Source of the DNA: a virus
Lineage: Duplodnaviria > Caudoviricetes
Direction: 5' to 3' (one strand)
DNA: 59,809 bases
Virus record (IMG/VR): IMGVR_UViG_3300020181_000014
Coordinates: 1 to 59,809 of that record
Position numbers and translations under genes: made by a program. This document shows positions 2,309 to 57,763 of this stretch, one piece after another (position 1 is the first letter of the stretch; each line of letters starts with the position of its first letter). The notes beneath the pieces were generated by a model, which did not search any database, was not told the origin of the DNA, and worked only from the letters and a program-made list of their open reading frames with translations.

Positions 2309-2416
2309 ATGCAACACAGTCAAGAAGGCCGCAGGCTGTTCCTGCGGGTGGTCTTCGCGGCAATCATCTACTGGGGTGTCGTTCTCCCGGCCTTCTGGTG
2401 GGCGGTGCTGGCATGA
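2309..2416 (+). CDS. 35-aa membrane peptide (below ORF-track cutoff)
   Basis: MQHSQEGRRLFLRVVFAAIIYWGVVLPAFWWAVLA; G-rich SD; ATGA-coupled to the MTase. Confidence 0.6.
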   Translation: MQHSQEGRRLFLRVVFAAIIYWGVVLPAFWWAVLA

Positions 2417-3669
2417 CCAGAACCCAATTCCTCGGCGGCAAGGTGACGCTCTACGGCGGCGATTGCCGCGACGTTCTGCACAGCCTGCCCGATTGCAGCG
2501 TCGACTCCTGCGTGACAGATCCGCCCTATGGCCTCGGCTTCATGGGGCGCGCGTGGGACGCCAAGGACGGCGCAGCCTTCGCCATGGATCTCTGGGCCGA
2601 GGTCTTGCGCGTCCTGAAGCCTGGCGGCCACGTGGTGGCCTTCTCCGGCACGCGCACATATCACCGCATGGCCTGCGCGATCGAAGACGCCGGTTTTGAC
2701 ATTCGCGACCAGCTCGCATGGGCCTACGGCTCTGGTTTTCCCAAGTCGCACGACGTGAGCAAGGCGATTGATAAGGGGGCTGGTGCGCAACGCGAGGTGG
2801 TCGGGTATCGGGCTTCAGAAGGTTCAGGCGTTGCCGGTCGCGCTCCACGCGATAGCAGCGGATCGCATATCTGGTCTGGGCAACTGCGATCCAAGGCTGC
2901 AGCCACCGAAGCAGCCCGGCAATGGGAGGGCTGGGGCACTGCGCTGAAGCCTTCATTCGAGCCGATCTGTCTCGCGCGAAAACCCTTCCGGGGCACGGTG
3001 GCCGAGAATGTCCTGCAGCACGGCACCGGCGCGCTCAATATCGATGGCTGTCGGATTGAGGGCGAGCCATGGCAAGCGCACCGCGCGACAGGGTTGGCGG
3101 CGAAGAAGTTCTTTTCCGACGGAGTTGCCGCCGAGATCGACAAGGCGCCTCATAGCGGCGGCCGCTGGCCTGCCAATCTCTGCCACGACGGCAGCGACGA
3201 GGTGATCGCGTGCTTTCCGGAGACGGCGCCGGCAAGGTCCGGCAAGCCAAGGGCGGGCAAGAACGGCGACGGCTGGGGTATGACTGCCACCGGAGCGGAA
3301 TATGACGACAACGGCGGCTCCGCTGCCCGGTTCTTCTACACGGCCAAGGCCGACGCATCCGACAGGATCGGCACCAAGCACCCGACCGTGAAGCCCGTCG
3401 ACCTCATGCAATGGCTTGTGCGGCTCACCACGCCCAAGGGCGGCACCTGCCTCGACCCGTTTGCCGGTACCGGTACCACCGGCGAGGCCGCCTGGCGCGA
3501 GGGCATGCGGTGCATCCTCGTCGAGCGCGAGGAAGAATATTTGGCCGATATCGCCCGGCGCATGGATCTGGCCGAGAAGCCGACCAAGCGCGCGGCCGTT
3601 GCAAAGACCAAGGGCCAGTTGCGCGGTGCTGAGGGAACGCCGCTGTTTGGCGGGGAGGTCTCTCCATGA
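2413..3669 (+). CDS. N4/N6 DNA methyltransferase (beta class)
   Basis: VTDPPYG catalytic motif N-terminal, HPTVKP and LDPFAGTGTT SAM motif C-terminal. Confidence 0.92.
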   Translation: MTRTQFLGGKVTLYGGDCRDVLHSLPDCSVDSCVTDPPYGLGFMGRAWDAKDGAAFAMDLWAEVLRVLKPGGHVVAFSGTRTYHRMACAIEDAGFDIRDQLAWAYGSGFPKSHDVSKAIDKGAGAQREVVGYRASEGSGVAGRAPRDSSGSHIWSGQLRSKAAATEAARQWEGWGTALKPSFEPICLARKPFRGTVAENVLQHGTGALNIDGCRIEGEPWQAHRATGLAAKKFFSDGVAAEIDKAPHSGGRWPANLCHDGSDEVIACFPETAPARSGKPRAGKNGDGWGMTATGAEYDDNGGSAARFFYTAKADASDRIGTKHPTVKPVDLMQWLVRLTTPKGGTCLDPFAGTGTTGEAAWREGMRCILVEREEEYLADIARRMDLAEKPTKRAAVAKTKGQLRGAEGTPLFGGEVSP

Positions 3670-4745
3670 CCCTCCCCAAGCAAGAAGCCACGCCTGGGGA
3701 TAACAGACGTGGCCTCTCGACGCCAAATACAAACGCAGATGCAAGAACCTTCTCCACGGCATCCTCAGGGGAGGGGGGCAAAGAAGCCGTGGGCTGCGAT
3801 GCATGGACCAAACCATCAGCAGGGGAAGATGTTCCCGCGGCTCAGCCGAAATTGCGAGTGCTCGATCTGTTTTCCGGGATCGGCGGTTTTTCGCTGGGGC
3901 TCGACCGCGCGGGCGGATTCGAGACCGTCTCCTTTTGCGAGATGAAGCCTCACGCGCAGGCGGTCCTAGCCGAGCACTGGCCCGGCATCCCGTGCCACGA
4001 CGACGTGACCACCTACGATTTCAAGGAAGGCGAAGCCGATGTCATTACGGCAGGGTTCCCATGCCAGGATATCTCATTCGCCGGAGCAGGTGCCGGCTTG
4101 TCCGGAGCCCGTTCGGGACTCTACCGGGAGGTCATACGAGCCATTCGCGTGGTTCGACCCCTCTACGCCGTGCTGGAGAACGTGGCAGCGCTGCTTGGTC
4201 GAGGGCTGGGAACGGTACTCGGAGACCTGGCCTCGGTCGGGTATGACTCGGAATGGCATTGCATTCCGGCGAGCGCCGTTGGTGCCCCTCACAGAAGAGA
4301 CAGGATATGGATTGTTGCCCACCCCAGAGGCGAGCAACACGAAGGCGGTCGCGCTCCGCTCAGCGGGTCGCTCGCCGCGCAACTTTCTCGCGCCAATTCC
4401 GACGCCCCGGGCGAACGATGCTCAGAAGAGGGGGGACTTCGATACGACGAACCCAAGGAACGGGCTTCCTGCATTTGCCAAGAGGTGGCCGACGCCGACC
4501 TCCTCAATGTTCAAGGGGTCGTCCCCAGCCTCTCTGACCCGGAGGAATGGGAAAGACAGGAGTGGGGACAGGCTGGATCACGCGGTGATGGCAACAGATG
4601 GTGGTCAGTTGAACCCGATGTGGGTCGAGTGGCTCATGGGGTTCCCAATAGGGTGGACAGACTTGAAGAATTGGGAAACGCGGTCGTCCCGCAGGTCCCG
4701 GAAATCATAGGCCGCGCCATCCTCGAAAGCAGGAGGACTGCCTGA
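3666..4745 (+). CDS. C5 cytosine DNA methyltransferase (alpha subunit)
   Basis: Motifs I LDLFSGIGG, IV GFPCQD, VI LENV, VIII HRRDRIW, X LGNAVV; no canonical motif IX. Confidence 0.92.
   Translation: MTLPKQEATPGDNRRGLSTPNTNADARTFSTASSGEGGKEAVGCDAWTKPSAGEDVPAAQPKLRVLDLFSGIGGFSLGLDRAGGFETVSFCEMKPHAQAVLAEHWPGIPCHDDVTTYDFKEGEADVITAGFPCQDISFAGAGAGLSGARSGLYREVIRAIRVVRPLYAVLENVAALLGRGLGTVLGDLASVGYDSEWHCIPASAVGAPHRRDRIWIVAHPRGEQHEGGRAPLSGSLAAQLSRANSDAPGERCSEEGGLRYDEPKERASCICQEVADADLLNVQGVVPSLSDPEEWERQEWGQAGSRGDGNRWWSVEPDVGRVAHGVPNRVDRLEELGNAVVPQVPEIIGRAILESRRTA
4039..4710 (+). CDS. Nested alternative-frame C5-MTase beta subunit (motif IX / TRD)
   Basis: ATG with AAGGAAGG SD; repeated xPTP units and LNPMWVEWLMGFP (motif IX-like). 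Confidence 0.7.
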   Translation: MSLRQGSHARISHSPEQVPACPEPVRDSTGRSYEPFAWFDPSTPCWRTWQRCLVEGWERYSETWPRSGMTRNGIAFRRAPLVPLTEETGYGLLPTPEASNTKAVALRSAGRSPRNFLAPIPTPRANDAQKRGDFDTTNPRNGLPAFAKRWPTPTSSMFKGSSPASLTRRNGKDRSGDRLDHAVMATDGGQLNPMWVEWLMGFPIGWTDLKNWETRSSRRSRKS

Positions 4746-7404: not shown

Positions 7405-8009
7405 TGGTGGATATCGAGGAAGCACGGCTCAAGTGCCTTGAGCTTGCTGTAAAAATGGGGGTGTCCAACCCTATCGAAAAGGCGCGGGAGTTCCTGGAAT
7501 TTGTTCGCTCGGAAGATGAACCTGCAGTTTCAGGAACGAAGCCCCTTCTGTCTTTGAGCGATGCTCAAGAGATGTTGGGCATAAAGCAGTCGTTCCTGTT
7601 TGAGTTGCTGAGGAGCAATAGGCTAAGGCGCGTTAAGGTGGGTCGTCGCTCTTTTGTCCGTCGAGATGAGGTTCTGAATCTCATGGAGAAGGGCACGAGC
7701 TCTCCAAAGCGTTCGCGGCTTGTTGTGCTGTCGGATGCTAACGGATCAAACGATCCCGAAAGGTACATGCGGGAATCCGCAACACGTCACGGTATCGACG
7801 TTGACCTGCTTAAATCCCACAGGAAATCCCGATGCATAGTGGAGCGCCGCGACAGGGTTGTGGTCGATGTGGCGAACCGGTTCCCCGATCTTAGCCTTCC
7901 CAAGCTTGGCCGTCTCCTCAATCGAGACCACACATCCGTGCTGGCCTGTCTGGTTCGCAATGGAGCCGTTCGCGGGGACGCGTCAAAAGTGATTACGGAG
8001 TCAGTTTGA
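7401..8009 (+). CDS. Fusion: excisionase-type HTH + DnaA C-terminal HTH
   Basis: LLSLSDAQEMLGI...VKVGRRSFV and LSLPKLGRLLNRDHTSVL. Confidence 0.7.
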   Translation: MMVDIEEARLKCLELAVKMGVSNPIEKAREFLEFVRSEDEPAVSGTKPLLSLSDAQEMLGIKQSFLFELLRSNRLRRVKVGRRSFVRRDEVLNLMEKGTSSPKRSRLVVLSDANGSNDPERYMRESATRHGIDVDLLKSHRKSRCIVERRDRVVVDVANRFPDLSLPKLGRLLNRDHTSVLACLVRNGAVRGDASKVITESV

Positions 8010-8605
8010 TGAGTGAGCTGGTAATAGAGCGCCCCACAAGTGCGCAGGCGCAGTTCCATGCGCGGTACAAGGAATCCATGGCGCGCATTCGAGCGGCGGC
8101 GAAGGTGCCTCTGGAGCCCCGCGTGAACCTGGCTCTACCTGCTCGGAAGCCGGAGGTGGAGGAAAAGCTGGAAACCGCCTTCTCGGCACTCGAATTTGTG
8201 CAAACACTTCCGACCACGAGACCGTGTGATCTGGAGCGCCGGGCCTCCATACTCCGCACCAAGGTCCGCATGGAGAGGGAGGAACAGAAGCTCCGGCAGA
8301 TCGAGGAACTGAAGAGCCAGATCAGGTTCAGCTTCGGAATGCAGCACTCCAAGTTCGACCGGATCGCGCGTCGAATCTGCACCGCTCTTCGGATTACCAA
8401 GCACGATTTGATGTCTATGAGGCGGTCTCGCGAATTGGTCTTTGCCCGGCAGGCAATCGTATATTGGGCTTGCCGGCGCACCACCCTTAGCCTCCCGCAG
8501 ATAGGCAAAAGGCTCGACCGAGACCATACGACAATTCTGCATGGGAAGCGTGCGTACCCAGTAAAGCGTCAGAAAATGGGGCGGTATTTGAGGCCCATAC
8601 TTTAG
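8006..8605 (+). CDS. DnaA C-terminal (Bac_DnaA_C) HTH protein
   Basis: RRSRELVFARQ...LSLPQIGKRLDRDHTTILHG. Confidence 0.85.
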   Translation: MMSELVIERPTSAQAQFHARYKESMARIRAAAKVPLEPRVNLALPARKPEVEEKLETAFSALEFVQTLPTTRPCDLERRASILRTKVRMEREEQKLRQIEELKSQIRFSFGMQHSKFDRIARRICTALRITKHDLMSMRRSRELVFARQAIVYWACRRTTLSLPQIGKRLDRDHTTILHGKRAYPVKRQKMGRYLRPIL

Positions 8606-8628
8606 ACCAACGGCGGCGGCGGGGACAC

Positions 8629-9168
8629 ATGACAAAGGCAAAGAACGGCGAGGAATTCGGAAAGCCATGGATTAACCCAGATGCTCTTAAGATACGCAAG
8701 AAGCGGCCCGAGGCCAAGCTGATCTATGATTCGTCTCCTGAGTCAGAGGCGGATCGCCGCAGATCGTCCATCGAATCCATCTGCGGGTGGCGAGGCGCGG
8801 GCAGTCGCAAGCGCTGGCGGGAAGGCGCGAAGGCTTTCGGTGCGGTTGATTGCGTCTACTTCATTCGAATGGCTGGAACAGATGCCTACAAGATCGGCCT
8901 GACGCATCACGCGCGGCAGAGGTTGAGCGCGATCGGCGCAGGCGTTCCAGTGCCGGTTACGCTCGAAGGCTGGGTGAGTTTCTTCGATAACCGAGTGCTT
9001 GGGGAAGCAGAGAGCCGGGCACATGAGATCGCAGACTTCTATGGTGAGCGCCTGAAGGGGGAATGGTTCAACCTTCGGGAGCACCACGTCATCAAGATCA
9101 TCGATGCTCTCACCGACGGCATGGAGGATGACGTGATGGGCGTCTCCTACACGGGAGATCTGTCATGA
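8629..9168 (+). CDS. GIY-YIG / T5orf172-like protein
   Basis: VYFI...YKIG....RL...E...H...GEWF. Confidence 0.8.
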   Translation: MTKAKNGEEFGKPWINPDALKIRKKRPEAKLIYDSSPESEADRRRSSIESICGWRGAGSRKRWREGAKAFGAVDCVYFIRMAGTDAYKIGLTHHARQRLSAIGAGVPVPVTLEGWVSFFDNRVLGEAESRAHEIADFYGERLKGEWFNLREHHVIKIIDALTDGMEDDVMGVSYTGDLS

Positions 9169-9728
9169 AGTCGTTCAGTGATCCTGGGGTGAGGTGGTAC
9201 GTCGTCCGCACGAACATCAAATGCGAGGAGAAGGCTGCGGCGAATCTAGGACTTGCCGGCTATCACGTCTATCTGCCGCGCTACAAGGTGGAGAAGTTCA
9301 ACAAGCGGCACAACACCTATCGCGTCTACGAGTGCAACCTGATGCCTCGCTACCTTTTCGTCGGCATTTCCAACGGCGATTTTCGAACAGCTCGCACCTG
9401 CGAGGGGGTCGAGTACATCGTCAGCGATGAAGGCTGGCGCGGCGTCCCACTTCGCGTGGCCGGCAAGGATATCCAGGCGATCTATCTGGCTGAAGTAGAT
9501 TTTCAGTTTGATGATACCCGCAAGGCTCGCGAGTACAGGGGGCACACCTTCGAACTGGCTTATCCGGTTGGGGCTCACGTGGTTGTGAAGCTCCAGAAAA
9601 TCTTGAATGGCCTGGAGGTGGGCGGCCGCATTCGAGAGACCAACGGCAAAAATAAAATTGTTGTGGATTTGGGCACGCTTGGGAAGATAACCGCTCTTCC
9701 ACAGGATGTGACGGTTGTTGAGGGTTGA
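9165..9728 (+). CDS. NusG/RfaH-family late antitermination factor
   Basis: WYVVRT...E..AA.NL...YLP...LMPRYLFV NGN domain plus KOW-like tail; sits in the lambda Q position. Confidence 0.85.
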   Translation: MKSFSDPGVRWYVVRTNIKCEEKAAANLGLAGYHVYLPRYKVEKFNKRHNTYRVYECNLMPRYLFVGISNGDFRTARTCEGVEYIVSDEGWRGVPLRVAGKDIQAIYLAEVDFQFDDTRKAREYRGHTFELAYPVGAHVVVKLQKILNGLEVGGRIRETNGKNKIVVDLGTLGKITALPQDVTVVEG

Positions 9729-9759: not shown

Positions 9760-10420
9760 CTATAGACGATTTGGCTGCCGGGCGGACCTTAGCAACAGGG
9801 AACACTCGCCGGGCCAATGGGGCGAACATCGTCGCGCCCCGATGGATTTTTATTGCCCGCGATCTGCGGGTTCTGTGATTCGTAGGTCGGCTCCGGCCTC
9901 TGGTGGATCGCCTTCGGGAAACAGGATCGCCAAGCCAGCGCGTGTTAACACGGTGCATTCGGTGGAGTGGCCACGAAGCCGAATGTGGAGCCATCCAATT
10001 CCGCGAAAGCGGCAACAGTTGCGAGTCGGCCAGTCACGCTAAGCCTCGTCAGAGGGCATGCCGGTACCCATGCTGCCCCTGCCGTCTCGCTTCAAACCCG
10101 TAAGGGTAGCGCCAGAGGCCGTATCGGGGTTTGTCACCCGGTGCGGCCTCAATTTCATTCACAGTTTGCCCGCCCTCACCGATCCTCTACAGAAGATATC
10201 TGGCTCGATAGCGTGTGGTAGGAGGCGGGCAATCCCATCGACAGAGGGCAGAACGGGCTTCTGCCGCACTGCGCAGCCCCATCGGCGGCAGTTAGTAAGC
10301 GCCCCTGGGCGTTGAAGAGATGCGGGAAGTTGCCGCCCCGCCTGTCGTATCAAATCAGGACATCACTGTCCGAACGGTATCCGGCATCGTGCCTGGATAG
10401 GCGGCTGCGGCCGTCGCTTT
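9760..10420 (+). ncRNA. Putative structured late leader / ncRNA cluster
   Basis: No credible CDS; GNRA hairpins 10001-12 and 10096-107; stems 10115-50, 10166-232, 10239-347. Confidence 0.5.
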
Positions 10421-44692: not shown

Positions 44693-45730
44693 TCATTTGC
44701 GTTTTCCAAACCTTGAACGGCGCTGTTTAGCACCCTCTGCCGATTTTATGTCAATCGGCCCAGTTTGGAGATCGAAGATTCCGGCCACATTCCGCCCTGC
44801 TTCCTGGCTGTGGACATACGTCCCCATGAACAGCGCCGCTGACTTCCACCCTCCTGCCTCCATTGCATCCTTGATCCTCGCCCCGCCATTGATGGCGTTG
44901 GTAGCGAAGGAGTGCCTGCCAGCAGCATGGCTGGACCGCGGCTCGATGCCAGCACGTTGGCAAACCGCCTTGATCCGGCGATTGACCGCCTGCCTGTCCG
45001 TATAGCCGAACACCCTCTTGCCCTTCACGGGCTTCAGTGCGGCAATGCGGGCGATGAGCTCGGCTGTGAGATAGCGCGGAGACCATTCGTCGGTCTTTGT
45101 CTTCTCCAGAAGCGCAATGCGCTCGGAGAGGTCCACATGCTCTCCCAGAAGGTTGATGGCCTCGGAGACGCGCGCGCCTGTCTGGTGCATAAATAGGACG
45201 CAAGCGGACAAGTGAGGAAGTCCGCTGCGGTCGGCTTCCGCCAGGAACTTGTCCATCCACTCCCGGTCCACGGGCTTGTTCTTCCGCGACTTTGGCACCT
45301 CGAACTGCTTCACCCGCATGGGACCGCACCAGCCAAGGTCATGAGCGTGGTTGATCACTGCCCGCGCGGGGATGATGCCTTGCCGGTTGCGGGTAGAGGG
45401 AAGCGCCTTCGGGTATAGGATCATCGCCGCTTGTCGGATCTCAGCGGGCTTGATTGAGCCGATAGGGCGTCCTTTGAAGTGCTTGATGATCGGTGCGAGA
45501 TATCGCCCTTCGCCGCCCTGTTCTAGGTAACTCACGGCGGCCTCCTCAAACGTCCTTACGGCTTCTTCGCCATAGGTATGACGTTTCCAGAGCCGCGCTT
45601 CGTAGTGCGCGCAGAGTTCCCTGGCTGTGGCTTCGTCGCGAGTGCCAAGGCTTTCTCGAATGCGCTTTCCGTTGAAGGTGCCATAGGCATACCAAATGCC
45701 TTTGATTTCTTTGGGCTTGAGCCCCGGCAT
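44693..45730 (-). CDS. int: Tyrosine integrase
   Basis: TGAR.SE, KTK, H..GRH, GGW, TY catalytic residues; adjacent attP. Confidence 0.93.
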   Translation of the reverse strand: MPGLKPKEIKGIWYAYGTFNGKRIRESLGTRDEATARELCAHYEARLWKRHTYGEEAVRTFEEAAVSYLEQGGEGRYLAPIIKHFKGRPIGSIKPAEIRQAAMILYPKALPSTRNRQGIIPARAVINHAHDLGWCGPMRVKQFEVPKSRKNKPVDREWMDKFLAEADRSGLPHLSACVLFMHQTGARVSEAINLLGEHVDLSERIALLEKTKTDEWSPRYLTAELIARIAALKPVKGKRVFGYTDRQAVNRRIKAVCQRAGIEPRSSHAAGRHSFATNAINGGARIKDAMEAGGWKSAALFMGTYVHSQEAGRNVAGIFDLQTGPIDIKSAEGAKQRRSRFGKRK

Positions 45731-48997: not shown

Positions 48998-49653
48998 GCC
49001 GCCTCCTTGTCGATCTGGTCGATGTTCTGAGGGATGACGCGGAAAGAGACGGCGACAACCCAGGGGTTCGCGTCCCAGCCGAAGCCGCGCGTGGCGTTGA
49101 GGCTGTTCCAAAGATCGTGGAACCGGCACTGTTCAATGCTCTTGAACCCACGCTCCAACCAATCGCCTTTTGTCGTGAGGAAGTCATGCGAGAACATGCC
49201 CTCCGCCGCCAGATCGCTAGAACTGATCTCCTGCAGCCGCTGCACGCGGACATCGGTCACGATCAGGGTAAGGCGCGACGCCCAGCGGGGCATGTGAATG
49301 CCTGGACGGATGCGCGACTGGAACGGGTCGTGCCTAGGGTAGGAGGCAGCCGGCTGATAGAAGATGCGGGCATCGCGCGGCAGTTCAGCGGGACGAATGT
49401 GCGAAAGGTCGCTGAATGTGCCCCACTGCTCGCGCACCCATAGGCGGTCTCCGGGGGCATAGGGTGCATAGTCGAGCGCGGCGCTAGGAACATCCTCTTC
49501 GCGCACGCCCAGCACGCCGCCGTGGGCATTGAAGACATGGAATTCCTCGCCGAAAGCCTCAATGCCCTTGAAGATGCGCCGCGTCTGCGTCTTCCTGCCG
49601 TCGAGCAGCGCGCGCACCATGGGCGCAGAGAAGAGTATCGGCCTATCGGTCAT
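48994..49653 (-). CDS. Conserved phage protein (ASCH/PUA-like)
   Basis: RPILFSAPMVRALLDGRKTQTRR, GDRLWVRE, HMPRWASR, NPWV. Confidence 0.85.
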   Translation of the reverse strand: MTDRPILFSAPMVRALLDGRKTQTRRIFKGIEAFGEEFHVFNAHGGVLGVREEDVPSAALDYAPYAPGDRLWVREQWGTFSDLSHIRPAELPRDARIFYQPAASYPRHDPFQSRIRPGIHMPRWASRLTLIVTDVRVQRLQEISSSDLAAEGMFSHDFLTTKGDWLERGFKSIEQCRFHDLWNSLNATRGFGWDANPWVVAVSFRVIPQNIDQIDKEAA

Positions 49654-50066
49654 GGCGATTCCTCGATGTAGAGAGAGCGACGGGGAAGGGGCTGCTTGTC
49701 CGAAGCCTTGGCCTTGCGGGCTTCTGCCTTCGGGGTGGTCTGGAAGCCTCGGCCTTGCATCTTCGGAGCGTCTACAATGCCGCGGTGCTTCTGCCGGATG
49801 GCGGCTATCTTTGCCTTCTCCGCTACGTCACGAGCCGTCTTTTCAGTATGGCACTTCCGATGGACGGGCTTCAGGTTCTGCTCGGAATTCTCACCGCCGT
49901 TTATGAGAGCTATGACGTGGTCCAGGTCCCACTTCTGCCCGCTCTGGATATCCTGCTCACAGAGATGGCAGCGGTGCTGCTCGCGCTCGAATATCCTGTC
50001 GCGAACCTTCTTGGGTGCGCGGTGGTTATCGTCGCGGCCGATCCACGGTTTGACGGAGCGGGGCAT
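49650..50066 (-). CDS. HNH endonuclease
   Basis: CHLC...DHVIAL..GG.N...NL..VH..CH..KT. Confidence 0.88.
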   Translation of the reverse strand: MPRSVKPWIGRDDNHRAPKKVRDRIFEREQHRCHLCEQDIQSGQKWDLDHVIALINGGENSEQNLKPVHRKCHTEKTARDVAEKAKIAAIRQKHRGIVDAPKMQGRGFQTTPKAEARKAKASDKQPLPRRSLYIEESP

Positions 50067-50317
50067 TACCCTTCCCCCTCGAAGAGATCGCCCGATGCCG
50101 GCGCTTCGATGAACAAAAGGCACTGCTCATTCGACAGTCTGTCGGGCGAGCGCGGGATCAGCATATGGAGGATGCTGTCGGCGTTGTTGCACTCCTGATA
50201 ATTGTACATCAGGTGGGCGCCCCAGACGGGGCACGATTGATCCTTGTCGTGGATGCAGCGAGAACAGAAATCCTCGTAGTAGAGTTCGCCTTCGGAGCCG
50301 TTGGAGAAGTAGCCCAT
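50066..50317 (-). CDS. Cys-rich hypothetical protein
   Basis: MGYFSNGSEG....FCSRC. Confidence 0.7.
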   Translation of the reverse strand: MGYFSNGSEGELYYEDFCSRCIHDKDQSCPVWGAHLMYNYQECNNADSILHMLIPRSPDRLSNEQCLLFIEAPASGDLFEGEG

Positions 50318-50984: not shown

Positions 50985-51224
50985 CTAAAGAATCTTGCGG
51001 GCCCAATCAGGCACCCACCGCGGGCCGGTGGTGGCTTCCTCAACTGCCCTTTGGGTGCATCCCTCCACAGCCACGCCAGCGTTCTCCATGCACAAGAGGG
51101 TAGCCAAGGCTTCCGTGCGAAGAAGCTTCACTTCCACACGATCTGTGCCCTTCTTGATGGAGCTCCGCAGGCCACCCAGAATCATGCTGTAGGCGACATG
51201 AAGTTCGCGGCTCATCAGCGCCAC
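50985..51224 (-). CDS. Hypothetical protein
   Basis: Overlaps ssb stop; GGAG SD. Confidence 0.5.
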   Translation of the reverse strand: MALMSRELHVAYSMILGGLRSSIKKGTDRVEVKLLRTEALATLLCMENAGVAVEGCTQRAVEEATTGPRWVPDWARKIL

Positions 51225-51676
51225 TCCATGAGGAACGGGATCTCGTCGTCGAGCTCGACGCGCTGGCCTTCAGCCGCATATCCGCTCTGGCGCTCGCCAT
51301 AGCCGGCGGCATCGCCTTCGCTGCGGGGTGCGTCGAGCATCTGCAGTTCGCCTCGGAACTTCTGGAGCACCACTTCCGTGATGTATCGGTCCTGGCCCTT
51401 CTGGTCCTTCCACTTGCGGGTTTGCAGCGAGCCCTCAACGAAGACCTTCATACCCTTCTTGAGGTACTGTTCGGCCACCTTCGCGATGTGCTCGTTGAAG
51501 ATGACAACGTTGTGCCACTGGACACTTTCCTTGCGCTCGCCGGAGTTCTTGTCGCGCCAGGATTCCGATGTGGCGATGCGAAGGTTGACGACCGGCTCGC
51601 CACTGTTCAGGCGGCGGATTTCTGGGTCGGCGCCCAAGTTGCCGATAAGGATTACGCGGTTGACGGAACCGGCCAA
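51215..51676 (-). CDS. ssb: Single-stranded DNA-binding protein
   Basis: SVNRVILIGNLGADPE...ATSESWRDK..GERKE...EGSLQTRKW...DDEIPF. Confidence 0.95.
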   Translation of the reverse strand: MAGSVNRVILIGNLGADPEIRRLNSGEPVVNLRIATSESWRDKNSGERKESVQWHNVVIFNEHIAKVAEQYLKKGMKVFVEGSLQTRKWKDQKGQDRYITEVVLQKFRGELQMLDAPRSEGDAAGYGERQSGYAAEGQRVELDDEIPFLMEWR

Positions 51677-51677
51677 G

Positions 51678-52544
51678 TTAGCCTCCTGAGAGAATGGTTT
51701 GATTGGGAGAGAAGCCGGCGGATTGAGCCTGCCCGTTTCGGGTGATTGCTACCGAGCGGGTGAGGGCTTCCTTGACCGGCACGCTTGCCAGTTCGGCGGC
51801 TTCCATCTCATTCAGGATGGCGTTGTGCCTGCCCTCGATGCGATCCCGTGCAGCTTCCTTGAAAGCCTTGTTCCAGCCGTCCTGCTTGGCCTTCTCGCGC
51901 CAGGCTTCCTTGAACTTCTCCAGCATCACGAGGGTCTTGCATTCATCGAGCTCGCGGTCGAACTCGGTCCATGCATCCTCACGCTTGAGCTGCGCCGATG
52001 ACTTGGCCGGCCCTTCGGTGGGTTCGCGTCCCCAGATTTCATGGGGTGAAGACGATGGCTGATCTTGCGGCCGATGCTCTAGGGTTTCGGAGAACTCCTC
52101 CCGCATGGTGTTGACGTATTTGTTGTCGTCAAACAGCCCCATGTGGACATCAGCGCCGACGCCAATGAGCTTCAGAGCATTCGTAACGGCGTCGGTGAAG
52201 GCTTTTTTGAAGGCTTCATCATCGCTGCGCAGGCCACTGGAAAACTTGCTGACAACCTTGTCGCCGCCCACGCCGTAGATGGTCTTGGAGGTCTCGTCTC
52301 CTTGCCTGAACCAGACCGAAGCGGTACAGTAGACGAGGATTTCATCATTGGCAGGGACCACCTGAAATTGCGGCTCGCCCACGCCCCAGCCAATGCCGCA
52401 GGGACCGAATTCCTCGGTCATGCGCTTGTAGGACCATATCGGCTTGATGGCGGTTCCCTTGAAGCCGCCGCCGCGTGTGAAGGCCTTGGTGTGCGCCGGA
52501 TCGGTGCGCCCAAGGATGTCCCAGATCTTCGAATTCTCGCTCAC
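51678..52544 (-). CDS. Rad52/Sak-like single-strand annealing protein
   Basis: MTEEFGPCGIGWG, DDEAFKKAFTDA...L..IGV.ADV; next to ssb. Confidence 0.7.
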   Translation of the reverse strand: MSENSKIWDILGRTDPAHTKAFTRGGGFKGTAIKPIWSYKRMTEEFGPCGIGWGVGEPQFQVVPANDEILVYCTASVWFRQGDETSKTIYGVGGDKVVSKFSSGLRSDDEAFKKAFTDAVTNALKLIGVGADVHMGLFDDNKYVNTMREEFSETLEHRPQDQPSSSPHEIWGREPTEGPAKSSAQLKREDAWTEFDRELDECKTLVMLEKFKEAWREKAKQDGWNKAFKEAARDRIEGRHNAILNEMEAAELASVPVKEALTRSVAITRNGQAQSAGFSPNQTILSGG

Positions 52545-54216
52545 TGATGAGCCCTCCGGTACCAGTATTTGAATTCTCTCCAGTCGCGCCGGGCCTTGCG
52601 CATCCATTCATGGAATGAGCCTGGGTATCCCCAGCGGCGCATGACGTGGGCAAAGCGACGGGCTTCCCGGGCTGCTTCGAACTTGAAGCGCGCCATACCC
52701 GATGCGTGGCTGATCTCAGGACTGCGGGCTGGCATCTGAGCCTCCCGGCTGATAGGGTATGGTCGTGAACTGACCGCGCTCGTTTCGCGCCCGAACCACA
52801 GTGTTGCCCCGGCATTCGTGGCACAGGGTCGGCTCACCGCTGTAAGCGCAAAGCTCTAGTCCAGAGCCGCCGCAACTATCGCAGGGCATCATCGGGTTTC
52901 TGGCCTTGAGAGCGTCCATCACAGCGCCCCCAGATATGCAGAGGCGACAACCACAAAGATCGTGATGGCGCAGAGGCTGAGATAGTCTTGAATGTAACCA
53001 GACATCATGCGACCTCCTTCAGAATGCCAAGGCGCAATTGCTCGTATGCAAAAGCTGCGGAGAGCTGCCATTGAGCCAGTTCGATTTCGTTTGCATTGAG
53101 CAGAGCGAGAGCACAGCGCCGGCACTTCTCGGCTTCCTTGCGCAATTCGTAGTCGTTCAGGTGTTCCTGGATGGAGACGCGCATGTTAGCCTCCTGACTT
53201 GAGAGCGGAGCGGTAGGCCTGCCATTTCAGCAAGTGCCCCCTTACGTCGTAGCCCATGGACTCGTACATATCGGCTAGGTCGGGGTCCCAATGGATCACC
53301 GCGCGCACGCCATGATGAATGCCAAATTGCTTGCCGCAGTCTGGACACCCGATATGCTGCGCACTGCCAAAGGACTGGATGACATCAAGGCGCTTGTGCC
53401 ACCCGATTAAGCAGCGAAACCGCTTCAGAAGCCTACGCATGGTCACTCTCCTGACTGGGTGAGAGCGGCGAGAGCGGCGCGAACTGCGGCTATGGGATGA
53501 TTTGCGGGCAGAAGGTCATCGAAGCAGTCGTAACGGTGCCTGACTTTCTCCAGCGCCTCAACCGCATCCTGCACCAGATCGGCGCGGATGTACTCGGTTC
53601 CAAGCCTTATTCCCGTGAACCATTTATTATCGTAGCGCTCAAAGCGGTCGGCCCAAATCCGCTCCGGCATTGCGCTCTTCGTCTCACTCATGACCCTGCT
53701 CCTTGAGAGCGGAGCGGGGAGAGGCGTTTGCGAGCGGCAGATCGTCGAACGACGGCCCGGTATCCGTTCCAGTGAAGCAGTCCTCGCAGATGTAATCCTG
53801 CTCGATGTAGCCGCCGCCGTCATGGTACTGGCGAAGGCCCTCCGTCTGGTCGCAGTAGGCGCAGACTGGCGTGTCGCAATGGATCTCGCAGGAGCAGTGC
53901 GGGAACGTGCAGCGCTTGATGATCGACATCGCTCTATTCCTCTGCGGGAGTGGTGCGGGGAGAGGCTTTGGAGAGGGCGGCGCGGGCTTCGCGCTCGGCT
54001 TCCGCAGTCTCTGGATCGCTCCACTCAGGATCGTTGTGGTCTTCGTCAGCAATCGCAGGACACGCGAGCAGCTTCTTCAGCGCCTCGTACATGTCGGCTG
54101 CGCGCTTCTCCAGCGCCTCGTAATCGGCATATCGAACGAGCGAGCCGTTCTCATCGCAGTCCAGACGCATCATCGGAAAATTGACGGAGAAGCGCTGCGG
54201 CGTATGCGCTGTCTTA

Positions 54217-54251
54217 CTCACGATTCTTCCCCTCGCATTGGCTGGGCGGTG
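54217..54251. repeat. 35-bp direct repeat, copy 1
   Basis: Matches 54573-54607 with one mismatch; spans gene end, SD and GTGA junction. Confidence 0.9.
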
Positions 54252-54572
54252 GCGGAGTTCGCGTCCGCAGAAAGCGCAGCGTCAAACTCTGGCCCCTCGA
54301 AAATCAGGACTGTTGCGCCGCCGTGAGCGAATGCTCGGCTTGCTGCAATTGAGCGAATGTGTGGGAAGGCGGATGGGTTGAATTCAAACCAGCCTTCATC
54401 CGCCTTCAGGTCCAGAATGACCTGCATTTCCATGGCGCGAAGGATGATGTCGACCGGCGACGGGGATTTCTCATCGTCTTCATCGATGATGAAGCTCGGG
54501 AAGATGAAGCGATTTCCGGCCACGTCTCGGAACGCCTTGGTCTTCACTACCTTTCCGGTAAACGTTGCATTG

Positions 54573-54607
54573 CTCACGGTTCTTCCCCTCGCATTGGCTG
54601 GGCGGTG
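54573..54607. repeat. 35-bp direct repeat, copy 2
   Basis: Encodes TAQPMRGEE as in copy 1. Confidence 0.9.
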
Positions 54608-55126
54608 ACGGGGCGATAAGCAATGACCGAATTCAGGTCTCGTCCGCTCCTGCGCCAGTTGCTGGGCTCTCCTGCCAAGCCAAGATTGCCCGCAGGCGTC
54701 GGTGGCATGTGGCTGTCGTCCGTTCCGTCCTGAAACCGCACATGCACGAGCTTTTCGGGATCGCCGTCCCAGTCTCCGCCATGCCAGGAAATCCAGCCGT
54801 CGTTGCTCATCACGCCGCTTCCCGAGCTTCATCTTCCAGAAGCTCATCGAAGATCGATTGATCATCCTCGGCCATCTCCTGGATGATCAGTGCCAGGCGC
54901 AGGAAGAAATCCGCGTGCTTCGGGTCCGGATGGCGATAGAGGTCCACGCCGTGAAGCGTCATGCCGGCGACGGTGAAGGTCTTGCCTGCAAGCGTGGGCA
55001 CCAGGTGAACATCCAGCTCGATCTCAAGGTCGTAGAGCGGTTCGATCTGGTAGCAGCGGGTGAGCTTCATGGTCGGTCCCTCGGTCAGTTTCGGCGGATC
55101 GGGCTTGGCCTTCTTCGCGCCGTCTG

Positions 55127-55199
55127 GTTTCCATAATAGAAACAGATGCCGGGGTGCATGTCAACAGCCCAAACGCATTTTGTTGCATAAAATAGAAAC
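55127..55199 (-). promoter_or_regulatory. PL region with putative repressor operators
   Basis: GTTTCC-N5-AGAAAC (55127-43), TTGACA on minus strand (55159-64), GTTGCA-N6-AGAAAC (55182-99). Confidence 0.65.
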
Positions 55200-55204
55200 C
55201 AACC

Positions 55205-55233
55205 TTGCCGGGCAGCGAATCGCAGGTTATAGA
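55205..55233 (+). promoter_or_regulatory. Promoter for structured RNA / HNH unit
   Basis: TTGCCG-17-TATAGA. Confidence 0.65.
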
Positions 55234-55238
55234 TCATG

Positions 55239-55496
55239 GCAACTCAGCTCAGACTGAGAAGCGGCGACCCCGGTGCAATTCCGGGTGCTGGTCAAGCCGC
55301 AGGCGCGGGGTCGTAAGCCCGAAGGTGCTGCCAGAAACTATAGGGATGGGTCGGACCGAAAGGCGGCCCGCCAGCTCTACGCACCGGCTCTATTCGCAGT
55401 GCAGAGCGGCACAGACCTCCTGGCTTCATGGATTCATTCCATGGGGTTAGGGGGTCTATGCCAGATACCCCCGGATATTCGAGTGCAGGGGGGGTA
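55239..55496 (+). ncRNA. Putative large structured ncRNA
   Basis: T-loop-like GG-UGCAAUU-CC, GAAA tetraloop, 25-bp stem 55408-62 with five G-U pairs that form only on the + strand. Confidence 0.65.
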
Positions 55497-55565
55497 CAAA
55501 GGTGGCAAAGAAGAAATACAGCTTAGACACTAACTTATGGTCTAAGGAGTTTCGGACGCTTTCCG

Positions 55566-56177
55566 GTGGTATTGAAGCCTATATGGGCTGCGCCGGCTTT
55601 TCGGGAAGTCTACGGGGTGAAGACTGATCGCATGGCGCCCTTCCATGATCGCGCTCGTGACGCGCACCGGCAGATCGCCGAAATGTCACGGCAGCAGCGA
55701 AAGGAGCGACAGCAAAGCGCCCGTGCTTTCATCGCAGAGCATGGCCTCCGTGCGTTTTCAGAAGCAGCCACAATAAGCGCCAAAAGCATAGAAATGCCGA
55801 CACCGGCAGGCAGCCCTAAGCCAGCGTCCAAGGCCGTAACACCAAAGCCAGGCTCAGACAAACACGCCAAAAACCCGACCCGCAACAAGTTCTATAAATC
55901 ATGGGAATGGCGCACTCTCCGCATGGAGGTGCTAAAGAAGCACGGCCCCGTTTGCATGTGTTGTGGGGCTTCTAAGGGCGACGTATCGATGGCTGGCGAG
56001 CCAGTCAGGATCTGCGTTGACCACATCAAGCCGATCTCGTCGCACTGGCACCTTCGGCTCGAAGCCTCAAATCTCCAGATACTTTGCGACGAGTGCAATC
56101 AAGGGAAGGGCGGCTGGGATCAGACTGATTGGCGTGTCCAAGAGGCTATCGAGGCCCAACTGCGGTACACGACCTAG
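55566..56177 (+). CDS. HNH endonuclease with basic helical N-terminus (start uncertain)
   Basis: FY.S.EW..LR..VL....CMCCG...VDHIKP...NLQILC..CN.GK. Confidence 0.88.
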   Translation: MVLKPIWAAPAFREVYGVKTDRMAPFHDRARDAHRQIAEMSRQQRKERQQSARAFIAEHGLRAFSEAATISAKSIEMPTPAGSPKPASKAVTPKPGSDKHAKNPTRNKFYKSWEWRTLRMEVLKKHGPVCMCCGASKGDVSMAGEPVRICVDHIKPISSHWHLRLEASNLQILCDECNQGKGGWDQTDWRVQEAIEAQLRYTT

Positions 56178-56509
56178 CCATCAGTACCAGTCTTGAGACT
56201 AGAAAGGTCGAGAAGGACCTTCATTGCTGTCTCTCTTGCCCTGGGGTCCATTTGGGCAAGAAGCTCGTCAGCTGTCGGGGCGGTAGGGGGGCGGAAGAGC
56301 TGGTCGACCTCGCAGTCGAGCGCAAAAGCGATCGCTTCGAGCCAGTCCTGATTATACCGCTGGCGTCCATTCATCAGCTTGGAAATGACACTCTTGCTCG
56401 TGTCGAGGCGGCCGGCCAGCTGCTCGGCTGTAAGTCCACGATAATCAAGCCATTCGCGCAGGAATAAGCGCGCCGGACGACGGTTCCGGTGGTGGATCTT
56501 CGTAGGCAT
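56174..56509 (-). CDS. cI: XRE-family phage repressor without S24 peptidase domain
   Basis: LREW...RGLT.EQLA..L.TSKS.ISKL.NG; divergent from cro; ~111 aa. Confidence 0.8.
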   Translation of the reverse strand: MPTKIHHRNRRPARLFLREWLDYRGLTAEQLAGRLDTSKSVISKLMNGRQRYNQDWLEAIAFALDCEVDQLFRPPTAPTADELLAQMDPRARETAMKVLLDLSSLKTGTDG

Positions 56510-56607
56510 GTTTCTATTATGCCTTACTGCAGCGCACAAGGCGTTCCACAAACCAGAAACTTTCTTTGATTTGCGTGTTGACGCGCCAATGTTTCTGTTA
56601 TAGAAAC
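56510..56607. promoter_or_regulatory. OR region: operators and leaderless PR/PRM
   Basis: Palindrome GTTTCT-N5-AGAAAC (56591-607), GTTCCA-N6-AGAAAC (56543-60), TTGACG 56578; no SD before either ATG. Confidence 0.65.
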
Positions 56608-56613
56608 TAAGGC

Positions 56614-56829
56614 ATGAAGCAGCAGCAGATGCACGCCCTTACCAAGTTTCGCACGGATCGGGGTCTCACCCTCGAAGATTTCGGCAAGCTCGTGCCGGCG
56701 TCCAAAGCAGCTGTCTGCAAATGGGAGAATGGACACGCGGTCCCGCGCCCGGCGACGATCAAGAGGATCGCCAAGCTGACGAAGGGGTCTGTGTCCGTCG
56801 AAACCTGGTTCAAGGAGGCCGCGAAGTGA
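56614..56829 (+). CDS. cro: Cro-like HTH regulator
   Basis: RGLTLEDFG..V..SKAAV.KWENG...P. Confidence 0.82.
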   Translation: MKQQQMHALTKFRTDRGLTLEDFGKLVPASKAAVCKWENGHAVPRPATIKRIAKLTKGSVSVETWFKEAAK

Positions 56830-56831
56830 CC

Positions 56832-57110
56832 TCAGTGCTGAACGTGCTTCTCCAGGCTGGCGACTTCCCCGGCAAGTTCCCACGCCAGGGCTTCTCTGGC
56901 GGTTTTGAGAACAGCAAGGGCCACAGAGTCCACGTGCATAATAATCCGTGCCACGACGATGCGCTCTTCTACTCCATCGGGGAACCGTTTCTGAGTGGTG
57001 TAAAATACAAAGCGGATGTTGCCGCCTCCCAGGCTCTCTATCTCCGCGAGTCCGGATACAAAAGTATCTGGCACGACGCTCAGATCTATGAGCGGTGCTT
57101 TGCTCAACAT
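56832..57110 (-). CDS. Hypothetical protein, inverted within early operon
   Basis: GAGGGAAGG SD; VPDTFVSGL..IE.LG.GN.RF. Confidence 0.65.
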   Translation of the reverse strand: MLSKAPLIDLSVVPDTFVSGLAEIESLGGGNIRFVFYTTQKRFPDGVEERIVVARIIMHVDSVALAVLKTAREALAWELAGEVASLEKHVQH

Positions 57111-57286
57111 GATGTGCCTTCCCTCGTTCAAGGCTCTCCTCATCCCTTACTGGAAAGAGCACACCCCAATTGCCGTAGGAGTGCAAGCAAAAGTTACCTT
57201 GGGTTGCGTGCCGGGAACGCAAAAGTGATGGGCCAGGGAATGGGCGCGGAAGAGTGCTCAAATGATCAAACCGAGGCCCGCGCATC

Positions 57287-57763
57287 ATGACCAAGATCAA
57301 TGACGGTGGGCCTGTCCTTCTCGCGCTTCAGAATGGTGGACACGCAATAATCTCCGAGGTGGACTTCCCCGTTCTTAGTGCCTTCAAGTGGAGAAGGGGG
57401 GGCAACGGGTATGCGTACCGGTGCGGTGCCAACCTTCGCGGCGTCCAAACCCTCTTGCACAGGATTGTGCTCGACGCACCTCGCGGAAAAGAGGTTCATC
57501 ACAGAAACGGTGACAAGCTCGACTGCCGCAGGGAAAACCTTGAGCTCACAACACCAAGTGGACATCAGGAATACCACAAGAGCCAGCTCATCGAGCGCAA
57601 CTTGGCTTCGCGCAAATATCCACTGACTGGCGTCTGCAAGCATTGTGGAAATAGCTTCATTCGAGATCCCAATCACCGAGGCCGCCAAACCTGCTGCTCT
57701 AAAGACTGCGCCATACGAATTGCGATAACGGCTCGAAAGGAACGCGCCAATGCCGCGGCCTGA
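57287..57763 (+). CDS. HNH homing endonuclease with C-terminal zinc finger
   Basis: LLHR.V.....EVHH.NG.KLD.RRENL; CKHC...CSKDC. Confidence 0.88.
   Translation: MTKINDGGPVLLALQNGGHAIISEVDFPVLSAFKWRRGGNGYAYRCGANLRGVQTLLHRIVLDAPRGKEVHHRNGDKLDCRRENLELTTPSGHQEYHKSQLIERNLASRKYPLTGVCKHCGNSFIRDPNHRGRQTCCSKDCAIRIAITARKERANAAA

Follow-up and report, generated by a model that had tools for sequence, protein, structure and literature searches.

What does the intergenic region at 55071-55565 of IMG/VR virus record IMGVR_UViG_3300020181_000014 (Caudoviricetes) encode, and does it work together with the small HNH nuclease gene that follows it on the same strand? A sequence-only reading of this DNA, whose full 59,809 nucleotides are referred to here as the window, had seen in the region a promoter and a structured non-coding RNA (ncRNA) of ~260 nt, and had proposed that the RNA and the HNH protein form a compact RNA-protein system or, failing that, that the RNA primes replication. 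Comparison with related loci indicates that 55260 to ~55500 on the + strand is very probably an autonomous gene for an undescribed family of structured ncRNAs in temperate phages and prophages. Judged across these relatives, the RNA is the constant element of the locus, and the HNH gene is an unrelated, free-standing endonuclease gene in a variable cargo slot. What the RNA does is less certain, and the readings that can be offered differ in how well they account for a short word that the RNA carries twice.

Homologues and Their Hosts

The first lead came from a blastn comparison with phage records, in which 78 nt of the intergenic region matched two 'Synechococcus' phages; the match there lies inside a 446-bp gap, with a leftward RecT operon on one side and a rightward gene on the other. 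Pattern scans of a viral collection returned family members in 2/2, 9/27, 10/62 and 15/15 stretches, and those of a genome and a metagenome collection in 3/7 and 22/37, respectively. After an nhmmer search that followed these scans, the set comprised 38 distinct full-length sequences, the window included, drawn from viral contigs, metagenomes, genomes of Alphaproteobacteria and two GenBank phages. Model R1, a covariance model built on the initial ~200 nt of the RNA and searched against the collected loci, recovers all 38 at 118-213 bits, with 132.4 bits and an E value of 1.7e-34 for the window. One further member beyond the 38 is a RefSeq prophage on plasmid p.QF3 of Pseudochrobactrum sp. XF203 (R1 144.5 bits).

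The named hosts are all Hyphomicrobiales (Aquamicrobium, Aliihoeflea and Pseudochrobactrum), and an alphaproteobacterial metagenome-assembled genome (MAG) also carries the RNA. Two loci, L001 and L002 (GenBank OM868082.1 and PP438429.1), are labelled as Synechococcus phages; every bacterial genome with the RNA is that of an alphaproteobacterium.

A Conserved RNA Read from the + Strand

Both strands of the region are unusually stable when folded as a single sequence (z -3.81 on +, -4.00 on -), so folding energy can neither choose the strand nor settle the question. The homologues are far more informative, and they bear out the structured RNA, of some 240-260 nt, that had been proposed from the window. 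Across the 38 aligned rows, standard pairs form in 92.5% of 2189 cells, compared with 79.6% in shuffled alignments (0/500 of which reach 92.5%) and 42-49% in a control with slid partners, and changes are seen on both sides in 37/59 pairs; for the nested helices these counts were made on an alignment fitted to those same helices. The pseudoknot is exempt from this caveat, since it is absent from the model. It was first seen by eye in a plain MAFFT alignment and is 100% paired, and its most variable position reads AU in 29, CG in 7 and UA in 2 of the 38 sequences. Covariation among homologues, by which the sequence-only reading had proposed that its RNA be judged, is therefore seen in the helices and the pseudoknot alike. 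Taken from the - strand, these pairs would leave 81.0% of cells paired in place of 92.5%, as 300 G-U cells turn into A-C; because of this drop, the + strand is the one on which selection acts, as had been suggested.

A signal at the level of DNA or protein, carried by a small ORF (open reading frame) at 55273-55533 or by DNA repeats or a cruciform (iterons, operators), is very improbable. The ORF is open over 86 aa in the window, but its frame is not conserved: a stop-free frame exists in only 14/38 sequences, and all 37/37 relatives shift frame relative to it. The sequence-only reading had held that conserved coding here would undo its RNA; none was found and the RNA survives. The 300 G-U cells and the strand-specific compensatory changes likewise argue against coding or DNA-level selection.

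No described family could be assigned. A cmscan of 54000-57500 against Rfam 15 at E<=10 placed no family on the element and gave just two chance hits elsewhere; at gathering thresholds, the whole window matched the skipping-rope motif alone, and eight relatives gave no match at the element. ARAGORN found 0 tRNA or tmRNA genes in the window, and the likeness to a tRNA T-arm is limited to the P2 hairpin. Word searches of the literature returned no description of this RNA, though a motif listed only in a supplement could have escaped them. A likeness to the cobalamin riboswitch and to RNase P, noticed by eye in short words, was dropped in the absence of a model match.

Anatomy of the RNA

The RNA is ~240 nt in size, of which ~200 nt make up the fold and ~40 nt the tail. 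A compact 5' domain, formed by P1, P2, the pseudoknot and P3-P4, is followed by P5, P6, P7 and the tail, and the features of the window are as follows:

55243-55258 (+): 5' leader hairpin, CTCAG-CTCAGA-CTGAG, sequence not conserved
55260-55463 (+): conserved RNA core, from the R1 match, pair counts and loop counts
55261-65/55296-300 (+): P1, conserved, covaries
55269-73/55281-85 (+): P2, with the T-loop-like loop TGCAATT, conserved, covaries
55288-91/55331-34 (+): H-type pseudoknot, outside the model
55302-06/55325-29 (+): P3
55307-09/55318-20 (+): P4, loop GTAA
55348-69 (+): P5, GAAA loop, conserved, covaries
55375-55406 (+): P6, large loop
55391-55404 (+): box A, TATTCGCAGTGCAG in the window, at the 3' end of the P6 loop and running into the P6 3' strand
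55408-55462 (+): P7, a 24-bp G-U-rich hairpin with a conserved GGGGUAGGGGG strand, conserved, covaries
55464 to ~55500 (+): 3' tail, single-stranded, holds box A'
55476-55488 (+): box A', TATTCGAGTGCAG, a direct copy of box A in the tail

Loop sequences are conserved along with the helices: loops of the GNRA type cap P5 in 38/38 sequences and P4 in 35/38, and that of P2 reads UGCAANY in 38/38. All stems, hexamers and the spacer listed by the sequence-only reading lie where it had placed them, although they differ in how far they extend to relatives. P1, P2, P5 and the long hairpin at 55408-62, with its five G-U pairs, are conserved and covary, the hairpin being P7. The leader hairpin, which is replaced by a different one in some relatives and by none in most, is not conserved, nor is the C5/G7 stem at 55466-96; both are restricted to the window or its subgroup, and the C5 and G7 runs of the tail to the window. 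The alternative 8-bp pairing of 55265-72 with 55306-13 did not hold up, as it is pairable in 86.9% of cases, shows 0 double changes and breaks in 11/38 sequences at the very places where P2 covaries. Two features that had gone unremarked are the pseudoknot at 55288-91/55331-34 and the direct repeat at 55391-55404/55476-55488.

Resemblance to tRNA is also seen outside the family proper. In L088, a Chloroflexi MAG, the 26-nt 5' word of the RNA, which comprises the 5' strand of P1 and hairpin P2, recurs unchanged in a tRNA stretch at ~7700-7790, and the tRNA-like sequences of L091 have unusual T-loops, TGCAAYY.

Box A and Box A'

The last 6-8 nt of the P6 loop recur identically ~88 nt downstream, 20-25 nt past P7. 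These words vary by phage (CCTTCA, GGTTCA, GGGTCA, AGTGCA, GTTTCT, GGGACA, GTGGCA and others), and the two copies vary together. Four variable columns are identical between the boxes in 35, 35, 35 and 38 of 38 sequences, and identical cells number 154/190, where 5000 row shuffles average 87.8 (sd 6.5) and reach 114 at most; kinship among the sequences inflates these counts, in which more than 10 distinct words are involved. When mutual information is computed over all alignment columns, each column of box A is linked best to its twin in box A', and no column is complementary to box A. The similarity between the boxes stretches to 20-25 nt in the window's subgroup, and in some members only the word is palindromic, as seen by eye.

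Complements were also sought outside the alignment. No reverse complement of a box word was found inside its own locus, the complement of the window's 13-mer has 15 matches at <=3 mismatches across the 59.8-kb window where 14.5 are expected, and the best duplexes found by scanning +/-5 kb at each of 37 loci are scattered, with no position in common. Elsewhere in the loci there is no third copy of the boxes, and the operator words that these phages carry do not look like them. A helix, a switch platform or a seed with its target would each predict a complement, and so none of the three explains the boxes. The DNA-level reading could draw on the arrangement of the boxes as direct repeats ~88 bp apart around an inverted repeat, but it has to contend with the missing third copy and with the unlikeness to operator words. 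Box A' is followed by purine- or A-rich sequence; directly behind it no conservation is seen, and an ordinary ribosome-binding site (RBS) or a cargo gene often comes next.

A scan for complements of the C-rich tail found in most members gave trivial antisense matches only, together with a remnant copy of the tail in L095. This remnant, at ~280-330 on the RNA strand and ~270 nt downstream of a complete RNA, is of a different subtype (GGAACCCTCCCTCACCAGCCTTCAGAAC). In this locus one RNA gene/cargo module may have recombined before another, with the tail as the recombination boundary.

The HNH Gene and the Cargo Slot

As the sequence-only reading had it, the 203-aa product of the HNH ORF (55566-56177, +) lacks RuvC: a Pfam search finds one HNH domain (PF01844), which spans residues 130-182 with an E value of 9.4e-07 and 29.3 bits (gathering cut-off 21.4), and no RuvC. 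The protein matches phage HNH families in PHROGs, the best being phrog_144 (E 8.4e-22). Its start is uncertain, lying either at GTG 55566 or at the in-frame ATG 55632, and AAGGAG at 55544-49 is 16 nt from the GTG. Naive ORF calling appears to mis-set the starts of both this ORF (55540-55640) and the neighbouring repressor gene (56505-56555).

That the RNA and the HNH protein form an omega-RNA/IscB- or HEARO-like system, as had been suggested, is highly unlikely. In the window the two are adjacent and on the same strand, and L019 also has a downstream HNH domain, though within a 567-aa GmrSD_N-HNH protein. The likeness to HEARO/omega-RNA-IscB goes no further than a structured RNA of a few hundred nt beside an ORF with an HNH domain on mobile DNA. 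No HEARO covariance model matches here; the ORF has 203 aa without RuvC or bridge-helix, whereas IscB has a split RuvC plus HNH in about 400-500 aa; and RNA and ORF do not co-occur, the RNA lying upstream with its own promoter in an operator cluster. At the sequence level, then, HEARO/IscB membership fails on all three defining features checked. A tblastn search with the HNH protein against the ~136 collected loci matched the window alone, so that the co-occurrence which a partnership would predict is missing. In Microcystis phage Mae-JY35, a segment 72% identical to the HNH stands after a cro-like gene, and R1 finds no RNA in this 6.2-kb locus. The partnership was rejected on these grounds: no co-occurrence, no HEARO match and a related HNH without the RNA.

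The ORF has closer counterparts among the free-standing HNH homing-type endonucleases of phages, which likewise have a single HNH domain, occur sporadically between conserved neighbours and are found several per genome. Two further free-standing HNH genes and a T5orf172 nuclease gene are dispersed over the early regions of the window, which would fit sporadic insertions of the homing type; these genes are at 49650-50123 (-), 57287-57763 (+) and 8629-9168 (+), with HNH, HNH_3 and T5orf172 domains, respectively. At least three or four DNA methyltransferase genes are also seen (26-466, 2398-3669 and 4039-4710).

Among relatives, the slot after the RNA holds DUF5131 followed by a convergent ORF, GmrSD_N-HNH, DUF488, small ORFs of no known family, or nothing. 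Examples are the 567-aa GmrSD_N-HNH protein of L019 (2402-4105, +), which is type IV restriction-like, DUF5131 with its convergent partner in L001 (3282-4900) and DUF488 in L137 (5423-5926). In 8/23 loci, naive ORF calls place the nearest downstream ORF of >=50 aa on the strand opposite to the RNA, and in L003 the RNA is directly followed by the 3' end of a convergent ORF, which shares the C-terminal KTGTDG with the window's repressor. It is because the genes in the slot differ or are absent among relatives that the RNA is regarded as the constant part and the HNH gene as cargo. Accessory genes directed at nucleic acids are often found in the slot, which appears to be a hotspot for cargo of the accessory or defence kind.

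Wiring within the Immunity Region

The surroundings of the RNA in the window have the layout of a lambdoid immunity region, in which the RNA diverges from the early-left recombination operon and faces a convergent repressor gene:

44693-45730: integrase
51215-51676 (-): SSB, early-left operon
51678-52607 (-): exonuclease, early-left operon
55071-55565: intergenic region holding the RNA
55127-55143: left operator a, palindrome GTTTCC-N5-AGAAAC, with AATAGAAAC at 55135-43
55182-55199: left operator b, with AATAGAAAC at 55191-99, adjoining the -35 element of the RNA promoter
55205-55233 (+): promoter-like TTGCCG-17-TATAGA (55205-10, 55228-33), hexamers 8/12
55566-56177 (+): HNH ORF, 203 aa, between the RNA and the repressor gene
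56174-56551 (-): cI-like helix-turn-helix (HTH) repressor (Pfam HTH_31/HTH_3; PHROG repressor families), convergent with the RNA/HNH unit
56591-56607: right operator, palindrome GTTTCT-N5-AGAAAC, overlapping the rightward promoter before the cro-like gene
56614-56829 (+): cro-like HTH gene, divergent from the repressor gene

The repressor is likely to start at ATG 56509, which would give an operator region of 104 bp. In the Synechococcus phages Yong-M2-251 and Ssp-JY39, the architecture around the RNA is as in the window, and on Pseudochrobactrum p.QF3 the order is RecT/nuclease (-), RNA (+), DUF488 (+) and a LexA-family repressor (-).

The promoter that the sequence-only reading had placed before the RNA is present as described (TTGCCG-17-TATAGA), although with 8/12 hexamer matches it falls under the 9/12 threshold of the scan tool. 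In every locus, the core starts 5-50 nt downstream of a promoter-like element, and a hexamer pair of >=8/12 ending 7-38 nt upstream of the core is found in 21/38 homologues (a count made without a shuffle control). The operator that had been thought to abut the promoter is borne out by the recurrence of its word in the repressor/cro region. The word AATAGAAAC has exact matches at 55135, 55191 and 56510(-) and single-mismatch ones at 56591(-) and 56599; its general palindromic form, GTTTCY-N5-AGAAAC, is found in the left cluster and in the repressor/cro intergenic region. Left operator a appears to overlap the -10 element or start of a leftward early promoter (TTGACA, - strand, 55158-55163).

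Other phages use other words in the same arrangement, with phage-specific operator words clustering at the RNA promoter and then again ~3-4 kb rightward. L029 carries its own operator-like word, TGTACGA, in three copies directly before the RNA, of which one falls in the promoter spacer/-10, and in another three copies 4.2 kb to the right; in L025, L136 and L107 an upstream TGTACGA triplet is placed as in L029. From these placements, the RNA promoter probably sits within the left operator cluster and is shut in the lysogen, since a copy of the L029 type falls in the spacer/-10. The promoter/terminator scan saw no terminator-like site on the + strand from 55500 to 56570, and for lack of one before the repressor gene, transcription would by default run antisense into that gene.

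A second conserved and apparently structured element, of ~400 nt and here called class II, occupies the same slot downstream of an operator-flanked promoter in other phages. Its carriers are:

L007, ~2960-3350 (-)
L010, ~8400-8810 (-)
L138, L139 and L140

In L007 and L010, which have no Rfam match, the initial 19-26 nt are shared with the present RNA, and L007 has two operator-word clusters. All class II elements share a hairpin loop of the CCCGGCTCC type, and their loop word GGCTTC is complementary, not identical, to a downstream GAAGCC.

Relation to Known RNAs

The RNA would work most like other promoter-proximal regulatory RNAs of phages, although it belongs to none of them. A riboswitch or other cis-acting 5' leader would be expected before a gene on its own strand in every case, with a terminator or an RBS sequestrator that can switch; in contrast, the next ORF here is on the opposite strand in 8/23 loci, no terminator-like site is seen and the sole alternative pairing that has been proposed does not covary.

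The c4 RNA of phages P1 and P7 and the CI RNA of P4 belong to the immunity region, have tRNA-like features and carry repeated specificity words that differ between heteroimmune phages. The present RNA is similar in all of these respects, being an immunity-region RNA with a tRNA-like feature and short, repeated, phage-specific words. The c4 and CI repeats are, however, targets complementary to a seed in the RNA, and here neither the RNA nor the loci hold a complementary seed, nor is there an Rfam c4 match; in addition, this RNA is probably repressed in the lysogen, where c4 and CI are expressed.

A further comparison is with orphan phage-associated RNAs such as the skipping-rope, GOLLD, ROOL and DUF3800 motifs, which (Weinberg et al. 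2017, PMC5737381) share with this RNA strong covariation, a complexity like that of riboswitches or ribozymes, a home in prophages and the lack of an assigned function. The RNA matches none of their models, and it is set apart by its constant position within the immunity region and by the direct repeat that covaries.

A skipping-rope RNA itself (RF02924, 54.6 bits) lies at 10237-10349 (+) of the window, at the head of the late region and ~500 nt downstream of a gene at 9165-9728 (+) that matches transcription-antiterminator PHROGs of phages; this placement may bear on the function of skipping-rope. Nearby, 8006-8605 (+) encodes a 199-aa protein whose only Pfam match is Bac_DnaA_C, the C-terminal, DNA-binding domain of DnaA (E 2.5e-17).

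What the RNA Might Do

The reading that we tentatively favour is that of an early, repressor-controlled RNA acting in cis on its own rightward, anti-repressor unit, which is one possibility among several. The RNA would be made early, once the repressor leaves the operators, and would act in cis as the folded 5' module of the rightward unit, either stabilising the transcript or rendering the polymerase resistant to termination in the fashion of put/EAR. Transcription would then cross the cargo slot and run antisense into the repressor gene, and this antisense transcription would oppose repressor expression and favour lytic growth. The put and EAR elements are RNA-only processive antiterminators, and put of HK022 is ~70 nt long with two hairpins. 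Like them, this RNA is a folded element directly downstream of an early promoter beside operators, and it may act on its own transcription complex; it differs in being ~240 nt long with a pseudoknot and in having no sequence relation to them, and no terminators to override have been seen yet.

Several observations weigh against this proposal. The RNA promoter of the window is weak by consensus, and the nearest operator abuts it without overlap. The promoter, both RNA ends and the time of expression are themselves deduced, and no RNA run is listed for the stretch, the only run listed being one of soil-metagenome DNA that may be its source. RNA-only antiterminators known so far are much smaller. 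The GmrSD-like and some other cargo resemble defence genes, and a promoter shut in the lysogen fits poorly with these because defence genes are usually expressed in lysogens. The intricate 5' domain, which looks tertiary, would suit a trans-acting RNA, or one that binds a ligand or protein, equally well. Above all, antitermination in cis and antisense transcription leave box A and box A' unaccounted for, and these are the strongest non-helical signal in the RNA.

A trans-acting RNA is also possible and is about as likely as a cis-acting 5' module. Its body would be a scaffold or decoy, and the box copies would be duplicated seeds for a host or rival-phage RNA or for a host factor such as an anti-defence target. 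This would suit the exposure of box A in a hairpin loop and of box A' in an unpaired tail, the two covarying as identical words, and the position of box A' next to a C-rich, anti-Shine-Dalgarno-like CCCUCCCUC in most members; rhizobial small RNAs with repeated, identical anti-Shine-Dalgarno seeds do exist. It would also suit the loci (8/23) in which the RNA is alone, and the T-loop-like loop, GNRA loops and pseudoknot, which are typical of RNAs that bind something specific; the first 26 nt point the same way, being identical to the anticodon-stem, variable-loop and T-arm part of one tRNA within the tRNA array of a Chloroflexi MAG. The difficulty is that no complementary site was found, neither in the window, where the 13-mer is at chance level, nor at any common position in the 37 loci. 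The C-rich tail is absent in the window's own subgroup, in which, moreover, the 20-25-nt repeat exceeds the length of a seed.

Among the readings weighed, only that of a ColE1-like primer or origin predicts words that are identical on one transcript, variable between phages and without a complement. Box A would pair with the template DNA at box A' and so seed a persistent R-loop for replication; the region would be an initiator-independent, ColE1-style origin within the immunity region, switched on by loss of the repressor, and the ~400-nt class II RNA would meet the same need in another way. In ColE1 RNA II, an rG run far upstream is repeated near the origin, and these runs would be the counterpart of box A and box A'. 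A passage of PMC4412123, citing Masukata and Tomizawa (1990), describes the pairing of the rG stretch of the RNA with the dC stretch of the template as essential for the persistent hybrid. Both RNAs are promoter-proximal, multi-hairpin transcripts without a terminator in which an upstream loop word is repeated downstream. They are unrelated in sequence and in Rfam terms, this one comes from a phage of Alphaproteobacteria, not from an enterobacterial plasmid, and its repeated word is variable, not a G run; no antisense counterpart like RNA I turned up either, though it was looked for by promoter/terminator scans only.

This second part of the sequence-only reading nevertheless appears rather unlikely, though worth keeping. 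It is helped by the probably early, promoter-proximal position of the RNA with no terminator after it, by the purine- or A-rich sequence that follows box A', and by the 30 window ORFs scanned, which include an SSB, an exonuclease and the protein with just the DnaA C-terminal domain and no initiator, helicase or primase, although annotation is partial and a replication gene may have been missed. GC skew is uninformative, and DnaA boxes are at chance level. Pyrimidine-rich RNA is poor at forming stable hybrids, and the tail between P7 and box A' is of this kind in most members; what follows box A' is unconserved and is often an RBS or cargo gene. Nor does a primer have any obvious need for a pseudoknotted 5' domain that bears a T-loop. 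Overall, the account preferred here, which joins the identity of the RNA, the unrelated HNH gene and the cis-acting mechanism, is probably the best explanation of the locus as a whole.

Significance

The lysis-lysogeny region is normally explained wholly by proteins, namely the repressor, Cro and antiterminators. If the family is real, a large, pseudoknotted RNA would join the core of this region in widespread temperate phages of Alphaproteobacteria, and since it is wired to the operators, it would probably be among the first products to appear after the repressor falls off. The novelty that has been demonstrated is at the level of an RNA class, and the tempting lead of a miniature RNA-guided HNH nuclease has been removed. 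Cultivable lysogens exist in Pseudochrobactrum, Aquamicrobium and Aliihoeflea, and an explanation of box A and box A' could reveal a new way in which RNA addresses DNA, protein or itself.

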